This document shows positions 3,846 to 45,382 of a stretch of 64,000 bases of DNA, one piece after another (positions within the stretch are counted from its first letter, which is position 1; each line of letters opens with the position of its first letter). The stretch comes from a virus (Duplodnaviria; Heunggongvirae; Uroviricota; Caudoviricetes): positions 64,479 through 128,478 of the IMG/VR virus record IMGVR_UViG_3300034061_003277. One strand, written 5' to 3'. The position numbers were made by a program, and so were the translations under genes. Under the pieces are notes generated by a model. The model had not been told where the DNA came from. It saw nothing but the letters and a program-made list of their open reading frames with translations, and made no database searches.

Positions 3846-3853
3846 TATTTATA
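3846..3853 (+). promoter_or_regulatory. Putative phage late promoter TATTTATA
   Basis: Motif recurs upstream of >20 genes in the window. Confidence 0.65.
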
Positions 3854-36709: not shown

Positions 36710-37747
36710 ATGAGTAAAACCTTATTTAAAGAAGCAATTGCCGATGCTAGAGCCGTTAAAGAAACAGCTATAGAAAGTGCAAAGGCTGCACTTGAGGAAG
36801 CATTTACTCCACATCTTAAATCAATGTTCGCTGCAAAGTTAGAAACACTAGCTGAAAACGACGATTATTTAGGAGAAGAGGAAATGAAAGACGAGATGCA
36901 AGACGAAACCCAAAATGAAGCTGCAGAGATGGATCTTGAAGAAATCTTACGTGAACTAGCAGAACTAGAAGAATCTGAAAATTCAAACAAAATCGACGAA
37001 GAAGCCGATGAAGCGTTAGAAGAAGAAGAAACTGAAGGTATCTATGAAAACGAAGACAAAGAAGAAGAATCTGAAGAAGATTTTGACATTGAAGACCTAT
37101 CAGCTGAAGATCTTAAAGAACTTGTAGTTGATATTATGGTTGATTTAGGTTTAACTTCAGCTGAAGAAGCTGCTAAATTAAAATCTAAAGAAGCTGGCGA
37201 CGATGAAATGGAGATGGGTGATGATGAAATGGGTGAAGAAGAAGAAACTGAAACAGAGGTTGTTGACGAAATCGATCTTAACGAACTTCTTGCTGAAATC
37301 GAGCTTTTAGAAAAGAAAAACAAGAAAAAAGCTATGAAAGATGAAGAAGAGAAAGAGAAAGATGAAGAAGACAAAGAAACTAAAAAGTTGAAAGAAGATC
37401 TTCAAGAAGCTATGGATTCATTAAATGAATTGAAAAACGAATTAGATGAAGTTAATTTATTAAATGCTAAATTGCTTTACACTAATAAAATTTTCAAAGC
37501 TAAAAACTTATCTGAGACACAAAAAATAAAAGTATTATCAACATTTGATAAAGCGAGTTCTGTAAAAGAAGTTAAACTAGTATATGAAACTTTATCTGAA
37601 GGATTAACTACCTCAACTGAGAAAAAATCCCCAATTAAAGAATCATTAGGTTCAGCTTCAAAAGCAATGGGTATGGCCCCTAAAAAACCAATAATTGAAT
37701 CCAACGAAGTATTTGCACGTATGCAAAGATTAGCTGGAATTAACTAA
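36710..37747 (+). CDS. Prohead scaffolding protein (T4 gp22-like)
   Basis: Highly acidic coiled-coil immediately before the capsid gene; NLLNAKLLY..K.F motif; C-terminal FARMQRLAGIN. Confidence 0.85.
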   Translation: MSKTLFKEAIADARAVKETAIESAKAALEEAFTPHLKSMFAAKLETLAENDDYLGEEEMKDEMQDETQNEAAEMDLEEILRELAELEESENSNKIDEEADEALEEEETEGIYENEDKEEESEEDFDIEDLSAEDLKELVVDIMVDLGLTSAEEAAKLKSKEAGDDEMEMGDDEMGEEEETETEVVDEIDLNELLAEIELLEKKNKKKAMKDEEEKEKDEEDKETKKLKEDLQEAMDSLNELKNELDEVNLLNAKLLYTNKIFKAKNLSETQKIKVLSTFDKASSVKEVKLVYETLSEGLTTSTEKKSPIKESLGSASKAMGMAPKKPIIESNEVFARMQRLAGIN

Positions 37748-37775: not shown

Positions 37776-39473
37776 ATGAACTCAATTCAATCCCTATTAG
37801 AGTCTGCTAATCCATGGAAGTCACTTCAAAGTGATTCAGCTAAGTTAGCAAACAAGTGGACCAAAACTGGTTTGTTGGAAGGTATCGAAAACGAAACCAA
37901 CAAAAACAATATGGCCCTTATGCTTGAAAACCAAGCAAAACAATTAGTAATCGAAAACTCTCAAACTGGAACCGGTGCTACTTTCACAGTAGGACAAGGT
38001 GAGCAGTGGGCTGGAATCGCATTGCCATTAGTACGTAAGGTATTCGGTCAAATCGCAGCGAAAGAATTCGTTAGCGTTCAACCAATGAACTTGCCTTCTG
38101 GTCTTGTGTTCTTCCTAGATTTCCAATATGGTACTACCAAGAACCCATTCGATAGAAACGGATCTTTATATGGTACTACTGGAAGCCAATACCCATTCGC
38201 AACTCCTAACCCAGTTGGTGGTTTGTATGGTGCTGGTCGTTTCACATATTCTACCAACCAATTCTCAGCTTCTGTAACTGCTACTTCTGGTTCATCTGCA
38301 ACTGCACGTGTAGCGTCTTGGGCTAACGTTAACTTTAACTCAGATTTATCAGCTTCTGCTGCTGCTAGTCAAATTATCCAAGTTGTTGTAACTAGTGCTA
38401 CTACAACTTTATCTAACTTTGATGTTGATGCAGTTCGTGGTTTCGTATTAGTATCTGGTTCATACGCTACTGGAACTATTACTAAGAACTTACCAGCATT
38501 CACAGCTTATGATTACACTAACAACACAATTACTTTCTATGTAACTGGTTCAAGTGTTAATGATTTCTATACTGCAGGTAGCGGATCTTATGTTGTAGAA
38601 TACAACAAGTTGACGTCTATGAATACTCGTGGTGATTTCGAAGATACTCCAGCAGTTTCTTACTCAACACCTAACGCTGAGAGCGCAAGCACAATCGTTA
38701 TCCCAGAGATTAACGTTAGCATGCAATCACAAGCTATCACAGCTAAGACTAAAAAGTTAAAGGCAGTTTGGACTCCTGAGTTTGCTCAAGATTTAAACGC
38801 TTACCAAAACTTGGATGCTGAAGCAGAATTGACTAACATTATGAGCGAGTATATCTCTTTAGAGATTGACCTTGAAATCTTAGATATGTTGATCGAAGAT
38901 GCAGCTGCAGGAACTGAGTACTGGACAGCATTAAACAATGGTGTTTACAACCCAGCTAACGCTGCTGGTTTTGATTTCCCAACTTCAACTACTCAAAACG
39001 GATATTACAACACTCAAGGTCAATGGTTCCAAACTCTTGGTACTAAGATCCAAAAGTTAAGTAACAAAATTCACCAGTTGACTTTACGTGGTGGTGCGAA
39101 CTTCTTAGTATGTTCTCCAACTGTAGCAACTATTTTGGAATCAATCCCAGGATTTGCTTCTAGCAACAACGGTGATGCTGCTCAAATGGAGTATGCGTTT
39201 GGCGTACAAAAAGCTGGCCAATTAAACGGTCGCTACAAAGTTTACAAGAACCCTTATATGACTGAAAACGTAATCTTATTAGGATTCCGTGGAACTCAGT
39301 TCTTAGAAGCAGGTGCTGTATTCGCTCCATACATTCCGTTGATCATGACTCCTCTAGTGTACGATCCAAACACCTTCACTCCACGTAAAGGTTTATTGAC
39401 TCGCTTCGCTAAGAAGATGTTACGTCCTGAATTCTATGGTAAGATTTATGTTAGTGGTTTGAACTCTATCTAA
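37776..39473 (+). CDS. gp23: Major capsid protein (T4 gp23-like)
   Basis: VSVQPMNLPSGLVFFLDF, KTKKLKAVWTPEFAQDL, YIPL..TP.VYDPNTFTPRKGLLTRFA. Confidence 0.97.
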   Translation: MNSIQSLLESANPWKSLQSDSAKLANKWTKTGLLEGIENETNKNNMALMLENQAKQLVIENSQTGTGATFTVGQGEQWAGIALPLVRKVFGQIAAKEFVSVQPMNLPSGLVFFLDFQYGTTKNPFDRNGSLYGTTGSQYPFATPNPVGGLYGAGRFTYSTNQFSASVTATSGSSATARVASWANVNFNSDLSASAAASQIIQVVVTSATTTLSNFDVDAVRGFVLVSGSYATGTITKNLPAFTAYDYTNNTITFYVTGSSVNDFYTAGSGSYVVEYNKLTSMNTRGDFEDTPAVSYSTPNAESASTIVIPEINVSMQSQAITAKTKKLKAVWTPEFAQDLNAYQNLDAEAELTNIMSEYISLEIDLEILDMLIEDAAAGTEYWTALNNGVYNPANAAGFDFPTSTTQNGYYNTQGQWFQTLGTKIQKLSNKIHQLTLRGGANFLVCSPTVATILESIPGFASSNNGDAAQMEYAFGVQKAGQLNGRYKVYKNPYMTENVILLGFRGTQFLEAGAVFAPYIPLIMTPLVYDPNTFTPRKGLLTRFAKKMLRPEFYGKIYVSGLNSI

Positions 39474-39492: not shown

Positions 39493-39522
39493 AAAAGGGC
39501 CGGATTTATCCGGCCTTTTTTT
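39493..39522 (+). terminator. Intrinsic terminator after capsid gene
   Basis: GGCCGGA-ttta-TCCGGCC-TTTTTTT. Confidence 0.9.
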
Positions 39523-39590
39523 GTTTTCTCTTATATATGTTTTATACTTAGTAGGTTTCTACTTATATTTATATCAAAATAAAGTATATA

Positions 39591-40505
39591 ATGAAAGAAA
39601 CCCCGTCACAATTAAATGTTCCGTCTTATGTAATGAATTTTCCTTTTACATTAGACACATCTAATCCAAATAACATTTGGATGCAAGAACTAAGCCCCGA
39701 AGAATTAAAAGTAGATAAAAGAAAAGCATATAAACAGTTTATGGACGTTTATAACTTTATATCTGCAGGTGCTTTAGTATATCTATTACCTAATGAAGGT
39801 AATTTTCAAGATCAAGTATATGTAGCAAATTTAGGACTACAATTACCTCACATCACAGATAAAAACACTATCTTATTATCTAACTATACTTCAGAACCAA
39901 GACAAGGTGAAGAATATGTAGGTGAAAAATTCTTTAATATGATGGGTTATGATACCCACATCAGCCCATACAAATGGGAAGGTGAAGCAGATCTAAAATA
40001 CCTACATGATAATGTTTATATCGGTGGCTATGGTATTCGCTCAGATATTAAAGCATATGAGTGGATGGAGAAAAACTTTGATATGAATATTATTAAAGTA
40101 GAAATGGTAGATGATTATTTATATCACTTAGATTGTAGTATATTCCCGTTAACAAGCGAAGACACATTAATTTGCACCGACTTCTACGAGCCCGAAGAAA
40201 TTAAGTTAATAGAACAATATACTAACATTATAGACGTACCTGAGCATATTCATTATTATGATATTACAAATGCTGTACGATATGGTAATATGGTTTTAGG
40301 TAGTTCATTTATTCATGAGTTAGATAAAGGTCATGAATGGTATGACGGTGAGAAAGCAAAAATTGACTTTATGGAGAAAATATGCTATAAACTAGGATTA
40401 GAACCAGTATTTTTCAATATTAGTGAATATGCTAAAAGCGGTGCTGCTTTAAGTTGCATGGTAATGCATTTGAACAGAGTAGATCAAAATAAAATTCTTT
40501 TATAA
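39591..40505 (+). CDS. Guanidino-group-modifying enzyme (amidinotransferase / arginine dihydrolase / DDAH superfamily)
   Basis: NIWM, DQVYVAN, RQGEE, WEGEAD, GYGIRS, YHLDC, EYAKSGAALSC: Asp/His/Cys catalytic set of the pentein fold. Confidence 0.85.
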   Translation: MKETPSQLNVPSYVMNFPFTLDTSNPNNIWMQELSPEELKVDKRKAYKQFMDVYNFISAGALVYLLPNEGNFQDQVYVANLGLQLPHITDKNTILLSNYTSEPRQGEEYVGEKFFNMMGYDTHISPYKWEGEADLKYLHDNVYIGGYGIRSDIKAYEWMEKNFDMNIIKVEMVDDYLYHLDCSIFPLTSEDTLICTDFYEPEEIKLIEQYTNIIDVPEHIHYYDITNAVRYGNMVLGSSFIHELDKGHEWYDGEKAKIDFMEKICYKLGLEPVFFNISEYAKSGAALSCMVMHLNRVDQNKILL

Positions 40506-40511
40506 TAAGTT

Positions 40512-41231
40512 ATGGCTAAAACATTAGAAGAGTGGTTGGACAGTGATGTAAAAGAACTGCTAAAACTACCTACAGGCGACCTCTCAAATACATTTTTCTT
40601 TAGAGATCCACCTCGTACTAATTTCATTAACAATGAATATTTCTTCTCACCAGCAGATGGAACTATTTTATACCAAAAATTTATAACTAATCCAAAAGAA
40701 CCAGTTGTAGAAATTAAAGGTGTAAATTATACATTGCAGGATGTGATGTGTGATCCAACATATGATACTCCATCTCTTGTAATTGGTGTATTTATGTCAT
40801 TTTATGATGTTCATATTAACAGAATACCATACTCTGGTGTGTTAAAATATGACCCAATTGAAAGCATAGAGTCAACTAACAAACCTATGTTAGCACTTGA
40901 AAAAGATATTCTAAACAAAGCTATTAATCCTAATAATTTAGATTATTTAAAAAATAATGAGCGAATGTTTAATGAAATTTATTCACCTTCATTAGATTAT
41001 TCTTATTATTTAATACAAATTGCTGATGAAGATGTAGATGTTATAGCTCCATTTGTTAAATATCAAAATACTTATTTAACCCAAAACGAAAGATTTAGTC
41101 TAATACGTTGGGGTAGCCAAGTAGATTTGGTATTACCGTTAGATGAGCGTTATAAATTTGAATTAATACACCCTGACACGACTCACGTGGAAGCGGGGAT
41201 AGACACGTTAGTTAAACTAATATATAAATAA
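40512..41231 (+). CDS. psd: Phosphatidylserine-decarboxylase-family pyruvoyl enzyme lacking N-terminal membrane helices
   Basis: FFRDPPR, FSPADG, VFMSFYDVHINRIP, IRWGSQVDLVLP (G-S self-cleavage site). Confidence 0.8.
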   Translation: MAKTLEEWLDSDVKELLKLPTGDLSNTFFFRDPPRTNFINNEYFFSPADGTILYQKFITNPKEPVVEIKGVNYTLQDVMCDPTYDTPSLVIGVFMSFYDVHINRIPYSGVLKYDPIESIESTNKPMLALEKDILNKAINPNNLDYLKNNERMFNEIYSPSLDYSYYLIQIADEDVDVIAPFVKYQNTYLTQNERFSLIRWGSQVDLVLPLDERYKFELIHPDTTHVEAGIDTLVKLIYK

Positions 41232-41232
41232 T

Positions 41233-41919
41233 ATGGCTTCGAATGATTACAATGATGAAGTATTTCAAAACAAAAGAAAACCTAAAAATCCTATTAAATT
41301 TAAAATAGAACTTAATAGTGAGCAGAAAGAAGCGAAACAACTAATTTTAGAAAATCCTGTTACTTTAATAAAAGGAATGGCAGGATCAGGTAAAACATTG
41401 GTTGCATGTCAAATAGCATTAGACATGGTTTTTAAGAGAGAAGTTGAGAAAATTGTAATCACACGACCTACTGTAGCAAAAGAAGATATCGGATTCTTAC
41501 CAGGTGATCTAAAAGAAAAAATGGATCCCTGGTTGGCTCCTATATATGCTAACTTGCATTTACTCTATGATAAAGATAAAATAGACAAAATGGTTGCTGA
41601 AGGTCAAATTGAAATTGTACCTTTCGCATTTATGCGAGGAAGAACATTCCCTAACTGTTTTGTAATTGTAGACGAATGTCAAAATATTACTCACGGTCAA
41701 ACTGAAATGATGTTAGGTCGTTTAGGTAAAGGTGGTAAAATTGTATTTTGCGGAGACATAACTCAAACTGATTTAAAACAAAAGAAAGATAGTGGTATTG
41801 GTTTCTTTACTCGTTTAGAAGCAGAAATTAAAGGAGTAAAAGTAATAACATTAAAGACAAACCATCGTCACGAGATAGTAGAACCAATTCTTAAACTTTA
41901 CCAAGAATATAGAGATTGA
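41233..41919 (+). CDS. phoH: PhoH-like ATPase
   Basis: GMAGSGKT, IGFLPGDLKEKMDPW, MRGRTF, IVDECQN, GDITQTD. Confidence 0.95.
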   Translation: MASNDYNDEVFQNKRKPKNPIKFKIELNSEQKEAKQLILENPVTLIKGMAGSGKTLVACQIALDMVFKREVEKIVITRPTVAKEDIGFLPGDLKEKMDPWLAPIYANLHLLYDKDKIDKMVAEGQIEIVPFAFMRGRTFPNCFVIVDECQNITHGQTEMMLGRLGKGGKIVFCGDITQTDLKQKKDSGIGFFTRLEAEIKGVKVITLKTNHRHEIVEPILKLYQEYRD

Positions 41920-41944: not shown

Positions 41945-44900
41945 ATGACAATAGTTAAACAAAGCCAGTTTGCTAAATCTGCGTTACAAGCTCAAAATGC
42001 AATTACAGCTACTAGTGCATCATTTGCTTCAACCGCTACTTCAGCATCATATGCGGGAACCGCATCTTATGTTTTAACACCAATTATCCCGTCTTTACAA
42101 CAAGTTGTAAATGTTGGAAATAGTATAGTTAATTTTGGAGGAACAGGTAACGCATCTTTACTATCAGTCAATTTTACAAATAATAGAACATTATACCTTA
42201 ATGATAATTCTTATCCTACTATAAGATTAGTAGATAATAACAATTCATCAAATAATCTCCAAATTGATATTGACACCATTAGTTTAGATGGTACTCCATA
42301 CAATTGGTCAGATATTGTTAGTAACACATCTTCATATGCTGAAACTGCATCATATTTAAATTCATTACATCAAGATGTAAATATTTTTGGTAACTTAATG
42401 GTTACTGGTAATTTAAATGTATTAGGAACAGCATCTTTTATATATACTACTCAATCTATTGTAGATATAGGAGCAGGATTTATTAATCTAAACACAGATT
42501 ACCCTGCAGCTCAATTTGGAGGAATAAATGTTGTAGATTCTGGCTCATTTGGTAATGATTCAACTGGATCTTTACTTTGGGATTCATTAAATAATAAATG
42601 GATATATTCTAACCCATCTGGTTCAAGTTACTCAAGTGGAATGCTTATTTCGGGTCCTAGAAACACTGGATCAATAGGTAATGAACAAGGTACTACATTA
42701 AATGCTTTAATGAAAGGACAGGGAGGTGATCATATTACCTCATCAGGTATATTTGAAGTAAGCGGAAGTGTAGGTATAGGGACATCAACTCCTACTTCTG
42801 GGTCATTAATTATTGTAGGAGCATATGCCGCAACTACATCTGCTCCATTAGTTACTCGAAATACTACGCCATATGGAGGAGCTGCCAATCAGTACTCTCA
42901 AGTTTGGCTTAACGCAGCAGGTGGTGTGATGGGTTATTTTAGAAATGATGGAAGGTTATATACTACTAATGATATTAACTCAAATTATATTATTGCAAAT
43001 CAAACAGGAAATGCAGGCACCCCTATAATTAGAGGCCCAGGCACAAGTGGGTTATTTTTTCCTGCAACTAACGGTTTAGCAATAACAACAAATGGTACTG
43101 AAGCACTACGTGTATTTTCTAATCAAAATATTAGTATTGGCACAACAACAGACGGAGGATACAAACTTGATGTGAATGGAACAGGAAGGGTGAGTGGGAT
43201 ATTTGTAGCATCAGATAGATTAACAGTTGGCGGAACAACTATAATTGCAAACGCATCTGTTCAAGTAAACGGAACAAATAAATTTGTTAACTTTAATGCA
43301 GCATATTTAAACGGCAGCTTTTATACTTATCAATGTTTTGGTGGGTATGAAGTTTTTGGTACAGACTCAGCATTAACAGGTTTACTAACTATTGGTGGTT
43401 ATCGCGCTTCGCAATGGACAGGAATAACATTCCATTCAAGTGGCTCTGAAAGAATGCGCATTGCAACAGGCGGAAACGTCCTCATCGGCACAACAACAGA
43501 CGCAGGGTATAAGTTAGATGTTAATGGCACTACTAGACTTGCTGGAAATACTCTAATAGCATCAGCTGCAACCCAACTAGGCACAGAAACAGCTAAACTA
43601 AAAGTACTTTCTGGGTATGAGGGTGGAGTAATGAATGGTATATTAGTGGAAGCAAATGGAGCTACATACACTACCATATTAAGGCATACAGGAAGCTCAC
43701 CTGGATCTTTGTATATTGACGCTACTAATGCAGGACTATCCGCCATGACTAGAGCTATATATATTAATGGGTCTTCAGCTCTTACTAATTATGTAACATT
43801 TGCGGAATCTGGTACCCCACGTTTTAATATATCAAGAGCAGGCACTATATCATTAGCCGGAGACATATATAAAAATATTGATAATTCATCTTTAGCACTA
43901 TACGGCGGTTCAGACGGAGTACAAGACGGATTTATAAAAATTAGTGGAAACTCATATTATTGGGGTATGATCCAATTTAATATGGGATATGATGCTAATA
44001 ACTCTAAAATGACTTGGACTTTACAAGACACTACTGAGTTAATGAGACTTACAGGAGGTGGTAGTTTACTTATTAATACTACATCTAGTGCTGGTTATAA
44101 ATTAGATGTGAGCGGAAGTACTAGAACCAACAACTTTAGATTAAATGATAACTCGTTAATAGCATCACAATATACTGTAGGTGGTACTACATTAACAGTG
44201 CTAAACACAGGCCATAATGGCGCAGTTGGGGTAAAAAGTACATCTGCCGTAGGAGTACACGCCATCAGCAGCTTAGGAGTAAGCGGCAACAACCCAACTG
44301 GAGCATCAGTATACGCTGCTGGAGGTAACCAGACTGGGAACATCTCATTAGGATTACTATCAAACAGAGCATTAATAACCAGTACTACAAACGGTTTAGC
44401 AATGCATACTAGCTCAATGTTGCAAGTTGATAGTACAATACAAGGATTTCTGCCTCCACGTACTAATTTAACTTCTAATATCACTACTCCTGCTCAAGGT
44501 TTAATGACATATCTTACTGGGTCTATTAATGAAGGATTATATTATTACAACAGCGGGTCACAAACTGGGTGGCATAAAGTATTAACTAATATTGGTTTAC
44601 AAAATATAACAGGATCACTCATAGTATCAGGAACATACGGTGGTATTAATACTACTTTTAATAAACCAAATCTATTTGATGCTAATGGAATTGCAAGAGT
44701 AGATTGGTCTACTGGGACCTTAACTAGTGTTGCAAATGATGTAACTGTAGATTGGGAGAATAAAATACTATATGACTCAACTACTAATACAGCATTAGAC
44801 TGGGAGAACAAAATACTATCTGATTCAACAAGTGCTAACAGCATAAATTGGGAAAATAGAACACTATTAGAACCTAGCAATACCTGGGTTGCCTTAGATT

Positions 44901-45382
44901 TCTCTAATGATACTATTGTGTCTAGTGAATTATACAACATTCAAAATATAGCCGACCAAGTACAAAGATCCTTCGCGGACACAGCTAATTATGCTGGTCA
45001 ATTAATACAAGCACCTATAGATGTCGGAGTAGCTGACTACAGTCTAGTTTACTTAGAAACTGATGGGACATGGTATAATCCTAAAGCTACTGTCGGATAT
45101 GGGCCGGATAAGATGCTAGGCATATGTTTAGCCGGCGGTAGCATACTAATAGAAGGAGATATAGGAGTAAGTGATGACAATAGCCAAGGTGTATACATAC
45201 CAGGCGCAGATTATGGTTTACCTGTATATATTTCTGATACTACTGGTAGAATGACAATAACTGCTCCTTCATCTACTAATAATGTAGTAAGAATAGTAGG
45301 TCATATATATTATCGAAGTGCTACAAATAGTAGTTGGTGGACAATGAAATTTAGACCAAGTAATGATTGGTATGTAATATAA
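41945..45382 (+). CDS. Long modular fibre protein (1145 aa)
   Basis: SASFA/SASYA repeats, IGTTTD.GYKLDVNG repeats, 14-aa DWENK repeats. Confidence 0.75.
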   Translation: MTIVKQSQFAKSALQAQNAITATSASFASTATSASYAGTASYVLTPIIPSLQQVVNVGNSIVNFGGTGNASLLSVNFTNNRTLYLNDNSYPTIRLVDNNNSSNNLQIDIDTISLDGTPYNWSDIVSNTSSYAETASYLNSLHQDVNIFGNLMVTGNLNVLGTASFIYTTQSIVDIGAGFINLNTDYPAAQFGGINVVDSGSFGNDSTGSLLWDSLNNKWIYSNPSGSSYSSGMLISGPRNTGSIGNEQGTTLNALMKGQGGDHITSSGIFEVSGSVGIGTSTPTSGSLIIVGAYAATTSAPLVTRNTTPYGGAANQYSQVWLNAAGGVMGYFRNDGRLYTTNDINSNYIIANQTGNAGTPIIRGPGTSGLFFPATNGLAITTNGTEALRVFSNQNISIGTTTDGGYKLDVNGTGRVSGIFVASDRLTVGGTTIIANASVQVNGTNKFVNFNAAYLNGSFYTYQCFGGYEVFGTDSALTGLLTIGGYRASQWTGITFHSSGSERMRIATGGNVLIGTTTDAGYKLDVNGTTRLAGNTLIASAATQLGTETAKLKVLSGYEGGVMNGILVEANGATYTTILRHTGSSPGSLYIDATNAGLSAMTRAIYINGSSALTNYVTFAESGTPRFNISRAGTISLAGDIYKNIDNSSLALYGGSDGVQDGFIKISGNSYYWGMIQFNMGYDANNSKMTWTLQDTTELMRLTGGGSLLINTTSSAGYKLDVSGSTRTNNFRLNDNSLIASQYTVGGTTLTVLNTGHNGAVGVKSTSAVGVHAISSLGVSGNNPTGASVYAAGGNQTGNISLGLLSNRALITSTTNGLAMHTSSMLQVDSTIQGFLPPRTNLTSNITTPAQGLMTYLTGSINEGLYYYNSGSQTGWHKVLTNIGLQNITGSLIVSGTYGGINTTFNKPNLFDANGIARVDWSTGTLTSVANDVTVDWENKILYDSTTNTALDWENKILSDSTSANSINWENRTLLEPSNTWVALDFSNDTIVSSELYNIQNIADQVQRSFADTANYAGQLIQAPIDVGVADYSLVYLETDGTWYNPKATVGYGPDKMLGICLAGGSILIEGDIGVSDDNSQGVYIPGADYGLPVYISDTTGRMTITAPSSTNNVVRIVGHIYYRSATNSSWWTMKFRPSNDWYVI

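Follow-up and report, generated by a model that had tools for sequence, protein, structure and literature searches.

Several viruses are known to supply polyamines or their precursors from arginine. Giant viruses encode an arginase and an ornithine decarboxylase (ODC) that lead from arginine through ornithine to putrescine, while marine phages encode pyruvoyl-dependent ODC or arginine decarboxylase (ADC) enzymes derived from SpeD that supply putrescine or agmatine; the survey that covered these enzymes found no arginase, agmatine deiminase, or N-carbamoylputrescine amidohydrolase in phages (PMC9992855). These enzymes belong to the ureohydrolase, alanine racemase, and S-adenosylmethionine decarboxylase (AdoMetDC) folds, which are unrelated to the ones discussed here. 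Closer in fold are the cyanobacterial arginine dihydrolases ArgZ and AgrE (PDB 6juy, 6lrf), which are penteins, and the members of the phosphatidylserine decarboxylase (PSD) family. We describe a pair of adjacent genes, one of each of these two kinds, in a 64,000-nt stretch of viral DNA (hereafter the window; IMG/VR record IMGVR_UViG_3300034061_003277, positions 64,479 to 128,478). The window comes from a 140-kb viral contig of 32% G+C, and its source is a T4-like myovirus. We establish the folds of the two proteins, their intact catalytic residues, the loss of the membrane anchor from the second, the linkage of their genes, and the association of their bacterial counterparts with an exporter. 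The pair likely specifies a soluble pathway to an arginine-derived amine and not the decarboxylation of a lipid. Within that pathway, the conversion of arginine to ornithine and then to putrescine is proposed tentatively, with a probability somewhat short of even.

The first gene (39591-40505, plus strand) encodes a 304-aa ArgZ/AgrE-like pentein, and the second (40512-41231, plus strand) a 239-aa proenzyme of a soluble PSD-fold, pyruvoyl-dependent decarboxylase, as judged from its Pfam match, structure model, and fold search. A preliminary description, made from the sequence of the window, had reported two adjoining open reading frames (ORFs) behind a short motif and after the capsid gene; their coordinates and the gap of 6 nt between them were both borne out. 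The motifs that it listed for the pentein (NIWM, RQGEE, GYGIRS, YHLDC, and SGAALSC) and for the decarboxylase (FFRDP, FMSFYDVHINR, and GSQVD) are all present. Its identification of the two products as an ArgZ/AgrE-like pentein and an anchor-less Psd also holds, the former by its closest solved relative in both sequence and fold and by its intact catalytic residues, the latter by its hydropathy.

Among the solved structures, the sole sequence matches to the pentein detected by phmmer were the AgrE/ArgZ arginine dihydrolases, with E-values of 1e-14 to 9e-13 (1.1e-14 for AgrE). A Foldseek search with its structure model (predicted local distance difference test, pLDDT, 87) likewise returned ArgZ as the best match (E-value 2.5e-19; template modeling scores 0.79/0.87), followed by dimethylarginine dimethylaminohydrolase (DDAH; 1e-12) and the amidinotransferases SxtG (6.5e-12) and HsvA (8.2e-11). 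By sequence, transfer and hydrolysis are inseparable. The agmatine deiminase of Campylobacter jejuni was matched at 3.9e-9. The phage pentein shares with ArgZ/AgrE the RQGEE, GYG(I/F)RS, and YHLD motifs and a C-terminal catalytic cysteine. It differs from them in that the identity is only 21-22%, the fused C-terminal domain is absent, the C-terminus carries a family-specific SC(M/N)VMHLNR sequence, and a PSD-fold protein is always its partner.

The predicted catalytic set of the pentein, Cys289 (40455-40457), His179 (40125-40127), Asp181, and Glu130, is intact. In the alignment, D74, N80, R104, E130, R150, H179, D181, and C289 correspond to D65, N71, R90, E118, R139, H168, D170, and C264 of AgrE, and each of the eight is at least 95% conserved in a set of 69 phage and bacterial homologs. 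The asparagine N80 (VYVANLG), aligned with AgrE N71 (VFTAN71AG), is found in 67 of these 69. PDB entry 6juz is entitled as an ArgZ N71S mutant with a covalent reaction intermediate; the role that we ascribe to ArgZ Asn71 is presumed from this title. At the position of the guanidine-clamping Asp79 of human DDAH1, the pentein apparently has Asn80. R104 and R150 lie in the motifs that hold Arg98 and Arg145 of the human enzyme. Human DDAH1 Arg145 binds the alpha-carboxylate of the substrate (PMC10958460). Because R104 and R150 would thus both be arginines of the carboxylate end, the residue pattern favors an amino acid, for instance L-arginine, over agmatine as the substrate of the pentein.

Two bacterial copies of the pentein, in Streptoalloteichus hindustanus (locus L090, 8795-9670) and S. 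tenebrarius (L099, 8834-9727), have lost the catalytic cysteine to arginine or serine. Further invariant residues are gone as well, and the adjoining decarboxylase looks intact; these copies may be inactive or repurposed enzymes.

The second protein matches Pfam PF02666 (PS_Dcarbxylase; 3.9e-20, 72.8 bits, gathering cut-off 22) and falls far under the cut-offs of all the NCBIfam PSD equivalog models (at best 70.6 bits versus 183). With its structure model (pLDDT 94.9), Foldseek matched Escherichia coli PSD, the tryptophan decarboxylase PsiD, and the arginine decarboxylase Ao-ADC1 of Aspergillus oryzae. The self-cleavage triad of E. coli PSD is D90/D142-H144-S254 (PMC7952604). In the family profile alignment, D49, D99, and H101 (40812-40814) correspond to D90, D142, and H144 of the E. 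coli enzyme, and the cleavage serine is Ser202 (41115-41117), which lies in a WGSQ sequence and is preceded by Gly201 (41112-41114); the Gly201-Ser202 site, at which self-cleavage is predicted, and the Asp-His-Ser triad are thus both retained. The phage protein resembles E. coli PSD (PDB 7cnw, 6l06) in fold, triad, and KG..Y(S/T)L insert. It departs from that enzyme, whose N-terminal helices bind the membrane and in which the acyl chains are held, in the acidic character of its N-terminal helix, in an additional helix formed by residues 124-140, and in its conserved acidic residues. Its highest 19-residue hydropathy is 0.94, compared with a median of 2.35 for the N-terminal segment before FFRDP in 30 conventional short PSDs.

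Precedents for a soluble enzyme are Ao-ADC1 (PDB 9jer) and PsiD (PDB 8x4q), which have the PF02666 fold and a pyruvoyl group generated by Gly-Ser self-cleavage, and which act on a free amino acid and not on a lipid. Ao-ADC1 is devoid of PSD activity (PMC12904898). Both are fungal proteins of 440-480 aa with long N-terminal regions, and both are distant from the phage decarboxylase (Foldseek E-values of 4.7e-3 for Ao-ADC1 and 5.9e-5 for PsiD). We know of no pentein partner of either enzyme.

Comparison of 125 members of the soluble subfamily with the 30 conventional short PSDs, the latter taken from genomes, showed that the members of the soluble subfamily lack the hydrophobic N-terminus, carry two inserts (66-80 and 124-140), have gained the conserved acidic residues E130, D172, and D231, and have lost a conserved Arg-Arg pair. 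Since the acidic gains and the loss of the arginines amount to a charge reversal, a cationic substrate would fit the decarboxylase, and the residue pattern suggests one. An additional argument, that the phosphate-binding Tyr137 of E. coli PSD is replaced here by Phe94, was dropped because conventional short PSDs also have phenylalanine. In a quick tree, the soluble clade and the conventional PSDs lie on either side of a starred branch; phage origin is presumed for most of the metagenomic representatives, and no direction of gene transfer is read from the tree.

In two metagenomic homologs (P0243 and P0361), an intein with a LAGLIDADG homing endonuclease splits the D-V-H motif exactly between its Asp and its His, and a cysteine comes directly after the intein. 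The insertion falls inside the motif, which argues that the catalytic site is under strong constraint. Fusion or read-through joins the decarboxylase to an ADP-ribosyltransferase with a VapB-like stretch in one of two further metagenomic homologs (P0248/P0247) and to the anti-CBASS protein Acb1 in the other, which hints that some phages may keep the decarboxylase gene beside host-takeover or counter-defense genes. The Acb1, ADP-ribosyltransferase, and intein fusions were set aside as functional clues, as they look like neighboring phage genes or mobile elements.

When one genome was scanned for each prokaryote species, 50 loci emerged with a full-length decarboxylase of this kind, at 42-53% identity, below which there is a sharp drop to the conventional PSDs at 32% or less. 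In 45 of the 50, a full-length pentein (33-54% identity) directly adjoins the decarboxylase gene, and in many cases the stop codon of one gene overlaps the start codon of the next. Of the other loci, three are truncated at the end of a contig, one retains a mere fragment of a pentein, and one lacks a pentein; the two genes are side by side in about 48 of the 50. Penteins were found beside none of 30 conventional PSD genes. The carriers belong to nine phyla; among them are Saccharothrix, Kutzneria, Nocardia, Streptoalloteichus, Xenorhabdus, Photorhabdus, Hoeflea, Verrucomicrobiales, and many Gammaproteobacteria. Pairwise identities among the penteins and among the decarboxylases are correlated (r 0.85), a value that none of 2000 permutations reached and to which shared ancestry contributes.

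An exporter lies within 1 kb of the pair at 40 of the 50 bacterial loci: a MATE protein at 23 and a fused ABC half-transporter at 17. No exporters were found beside conventional PSD genes. As two unrelated pump families occupy the same position, the gene contexts indicate that the product of the bacterial pair would leave the cell. Clustering of the neighbors of all 50 loci identified no third conserved biosynthetic gene apart from the exporters, and an Rfam scan of eight of the loci for riboswitches gave tRNAs only. Single loci carry additional genes, namely a spermidine synthase (Hoeflea), a pyridoxal phosphate (PLP)-dependent Orn/DAP/Arg decarboxylase (one Pseudomonadota locus), and a GNAT acetyltransferase after the exporter (Saccharothrix xinjiangensis, L124). 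In a Desulfobacula genome (L094, 4416-12545), the pair is embedded in a polysaccharide locus that also encodes a pyruvyl transferase, glycosyltransferases, and a flippase.

Two bacterial loci are unusual in structure. The L094 pair has the phage-like order, with the pentein first, and its third-position G+C is below that of its neighbors. In Photorhabdus tasmaniensis (L139, 604-2420), the decarboxylase gene is in two pieces about 1.1 kb apart with an opposite-strand 345-aa ORF between them; the gene was apparently disrupted by an insertion.

The pair is also widespread among viruses, and each protein forms about 2000 clusters at 90% identity. Among 80 loci on related viral contigs, the two genes are adjacent, in the order capsid, pentein, PSD, PhoH, in every one with enough upstream DNA. 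Six Bacteroides phages have both genes, adjacent in DAC19. Both are likewise present, unlinked, in 39-40 records of Campylobacter phages (Fletcherviruses); in Campylobacter phage NCTC12673, gp044 and gp085 are about 43 kb apart. No exporter lies beside the pair in phages, and neither protein was matched in a PADLOC search for defense systems. Depositors have labeled the phage genes "amidinotransferase" (the pentein) and "phosphatidylserine decarboxylase" (the decarboxylase), and both labels are probably wrong or misleading. It should be noted that a depositors' note ties gp085 of NCTC12673 to record AF210249, a bleomycin cluster.

The promoter-like motif ahead of the pair, TATTTATA (39566-39573, plus strand), lies 18 nt 5' of the pentein start codon. 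The plus strand of the window has 22 copies, including those at 3846, 8807, 30393, 41920, 47472, 54753, and 63903, and 18 of the 22 sit 7-33 nt 5' of an ORF start, in the structural region. Only 4.6% of positions would be expected to fulfill this spacing by chance; the copy at 39566 is therefore not a random match. The motif is probably the late promoter of this phage lineage and is close to, yet distinct from, the T4 late promoter TATAAATA.

A model of the complex of the two proteins supports their binding to each other. The predicted complex scored 0.77, compared with 0.27 for the best control. In the calibration, 58 of 80 solved complexes and 2 of 110 mismatched pairs attained that mark. 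The contacts agreed between runs to at least 96%, and the pLDDT of the partner was at least 83. In the prediction, the pentein strand 271-276 and its flanking helices contact residues 33-43 of the decarboxylase. To our knowledge, there is no solved pentein-PSD complex that the model could have memorized.

From these data, we infer on which substrates the two enzymes act, which of them acts first, when they are expressed, and what their product is used for. The pair would act as a soluble module of two enzymes, which probably associate in a heteromeric complex, and would turn L-arginine into a decarboxylated cationic amine. The pentein would act as an arginine dihydrolase, yielding L-ornithine, two ammonia, and CO2; the decarboxylase would cleave itself between Gly201 and Ser202, generating its pyruvoyl group, and would convert ornithine to putrescine. 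In bacteria, where the pair is joined to an efflux pump, the product would be exported. In the phage, the pair is without a pump and follows a late-type promoter, and the amine would therefore accumulate in the infected cell, where it could neutralize DNA charge for packaging and feed the spermidine synthesis of the host. Putrescine synthesis can be limited by the supply of ornithine (PMC9992855).

The preliminary description is supported in part by this analysis. Its proposal that the pair works jointly as a soluble pathway is supported by the adjacency of the genes in nine phyla, their occurrence in three phage groups, their correlated divergence, and the predicted complex; the gene-neighborhood survey that it suggested showed the pair to be conserved across phage groups and bacteria. 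Of the chemistries that it offered, arginine to ornithine to putrescine is the best supported, though it is still one that we infer. The other, serine decarboxylation with amidino transfer onto DNA, protein, or glycan, is left with next to no support, as L094 is the sole locus on its side against 40 of 50 with exporters.

Several observations weigh against the putrescine route. Ornithine is a common metabolite, and an ornithine decarboxylase should need no dedicated partner; channeling within the predicted complex is a possible answer. However, the interface shows no excess conservation in either protein (mean 0.61 versus 0.65 overall in the pentein and 0.42 versus 0.52 in the decarboxylase), and binding therefore stays a prediction. 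The only arginine-pathway precedent in the PSD fold is an arginine decarboxylase. The pentein scores below the curated cut-offs for arginine dihydrolases (NF052232, 72.9 bits versus 450, over the first two thirds of the model only) and for DDAH (PF19420, 20.4 bits versus 23; NF045659, 79.5 versus 300) and must thus be regarded as a relative of these families, not as a member. In 48 bacterial loci, the decarboxylase gene precedes that of the pentein, and several divergent phage contigs encode the decarboxylase without a pentein in the DNA covered. No spermidine synthase, AdoMetDC, or PLP-dependent Orn/Arg decarboxylase was found in this phage, NCTC12673, or DAC19. Finally, the dedicated exporters at 40 of the 50 bacterial loci suit a housekeeping polyamine no better than a secreted specialized metabolite.

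The bacterial gene order would suit a pathway with its two steps in the opposite order, in which arginine is first decarboxylated to agmatine and the pentein then forms N-carbamoylputrescine, to be finished by a host amidohydrolase, or putrescine directly. Campylobacter and Bacteroides make putrescine via agmatine and N-carbamoylputrescine, it is common for an arginine decarboxylase to be linked to an enzyme that processes agmatine, and Ao-ADC1 exemplifies a PSD-fold arginine decarboxylase devoid of PSD activity. The tight coupling of the pair would also be explained, since agmatine is not a free common metabolite. We nevertheless consider this order unlikely: the pentein retains both arginines at the DDAH/AgrE carboxylate-end positions, its fold is much nearer to ArgZ (2.5e-19) than to the C. 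jejuni agmatine deiminase (3.9e-9), and its gene comes first in the phage. A similarly low probability is given to a specialized cationic metabolite that bacteria would secrete and phages would make inside the cell to alter host physiology, for example, a guanidino amine produced by amidino transfer and decarboxylation or N-carbamoylputrescine produced from citrulline. The two unrelated exporter families in the same position, the secondary-metabolism-rich carriers (Xenorhabdus, Photorhabdus, Saccharothrix, Kutzneria, and Streptoalloteichus), the acetyltransferase gene of S. xinjiangensis, the depositors' amidinotransferase label, and the presence of SxtG and HsvA among the fold matches are all consistent with such a product. 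The label, however, apparently derives from the name of the superfamily and not from a test, and the pentein is closest by fold and sequence to the hydrolase ArgZ, whose Asn71 equivalent it retains. At about 300 aa, it also lacks the extra modules of the 340-370-aa amidinotransferases, and conservation around the pair extends to no third biosynthetic gene. It is equally doubtful that phages took over the pair without its pump to flood the cell with an undescribed secreted bacterial metabolite, in which case it would serve host takeover or counter-defense instead of polyamine supply.

Modification of a macromolecule (a DNA base, glycan, or protein), in which an attached amino acid would be decarboxylated and a guanidino group acted on, seems very improbable to us. 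Decarboxylation of an amino acid is a step in known pathways of thymidine hypermodification, the L094 pair lies among glycosyltransferases, a pyruvyl transferase, and a flippase, and the Fletcherviruses have unusual DNA. In that DNA, deoxyguanosine (dG) is replaced by deoxyinosine (dI), which is thought to occur through the triphosphate dITP (PMC13091555). Yet the pair is also found in Bacteroides phages, aquatic phages, and many bacteria, and the partners at 40 of the 50 bacterial loci are small-molecule exporters, not DNA or glycan enzymes. A link of the pair to the replacement of dG by dI was rejected, because the conversion of guanine to hypoxanthine is not a guanidino hydrolysis, the replacement would take the dITP route, and the pair occurs far outside the Fletcherviruses. 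Least credible of all is a true phosphatidylserine decarboxylase that raises the phosphatidylethanolamine of the host next to an unrelated pentein. Such an enzyme would account for the PF02666 match, the intact triad, and the annotations given by depositors, but not for the missing membrane anchor, equivalog scores far under the cut-offs, the starred branch in the tree, the lost Arg-Arg pair and gained acidic residues, or the obligate pentein partner and the exporters, which are absent from conventional PSD loci.

The Gp23-type major capsid gene that precedes the pair (Pfam, 2.2e-75; gene end at 39473) encodes a protein with 57% identity to its counterpart in Flavobacterium phage immuto, and the capsid transcript is closed by a strong predicted Rho-independent terminator (39493-39520, plus strand) with a 12-bp stem containing six G-C pairs and followed by a T run. 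A head maturation (prohead) protease gene lies upstream of the capsid gene. Between these two is a gene (36710-37747) for a 345-aa protein with an extreme content of Glu and Asp; no PHROG was matched by this protein, which probably serves as the scaffold. On the other side, a gene for a PhoH-like ATPase (41233-41919, plus strand; Pfam PhoH, 2.7e-62) begins 1 nt past the decarboxylase stop codon. PhoH is a constant neighbor in this phage lineage and does not occur beside the bacterial pairs. It is followed, behind a TATTTATA copy of its own, by a gene (41945-45382) for a 1145-aa protein that is rich in Ser, Thr, Gly, and Asn, a fiber-like composition, and that had no PHROG match either.

Literature searches found no paper describing a pentein-PSD pair, in agreement with the preliminary description, which had not recognized it as a described phage pathway, and the survey of viral polyamine enzymes does not mention it (PMC9992855). 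The enzyme superfamilies and the proposed chemistry were already known. What is new is the pairing of the two enzymes, together with the soluble subfamily, the operon that bacteria have with an exporter, and the complex that is predicted. The bacterial pair and its exporter form an unstudied operon that offers a direct handle on the identity of the product and on the reason for its secretion. If our proposal is true, arginine would be turned into putrescine by a new route of two enzymes, whose folds have no earlier record of use for these steps in bacteria or phages, and the protein folds able to decarboxylate a basic amino acid would grow in number by one. The virus-encoded polyamine enzymes would then be joined by a widespread auxiliary metabolic module, present in Campylobacter and Bacteroides phages.

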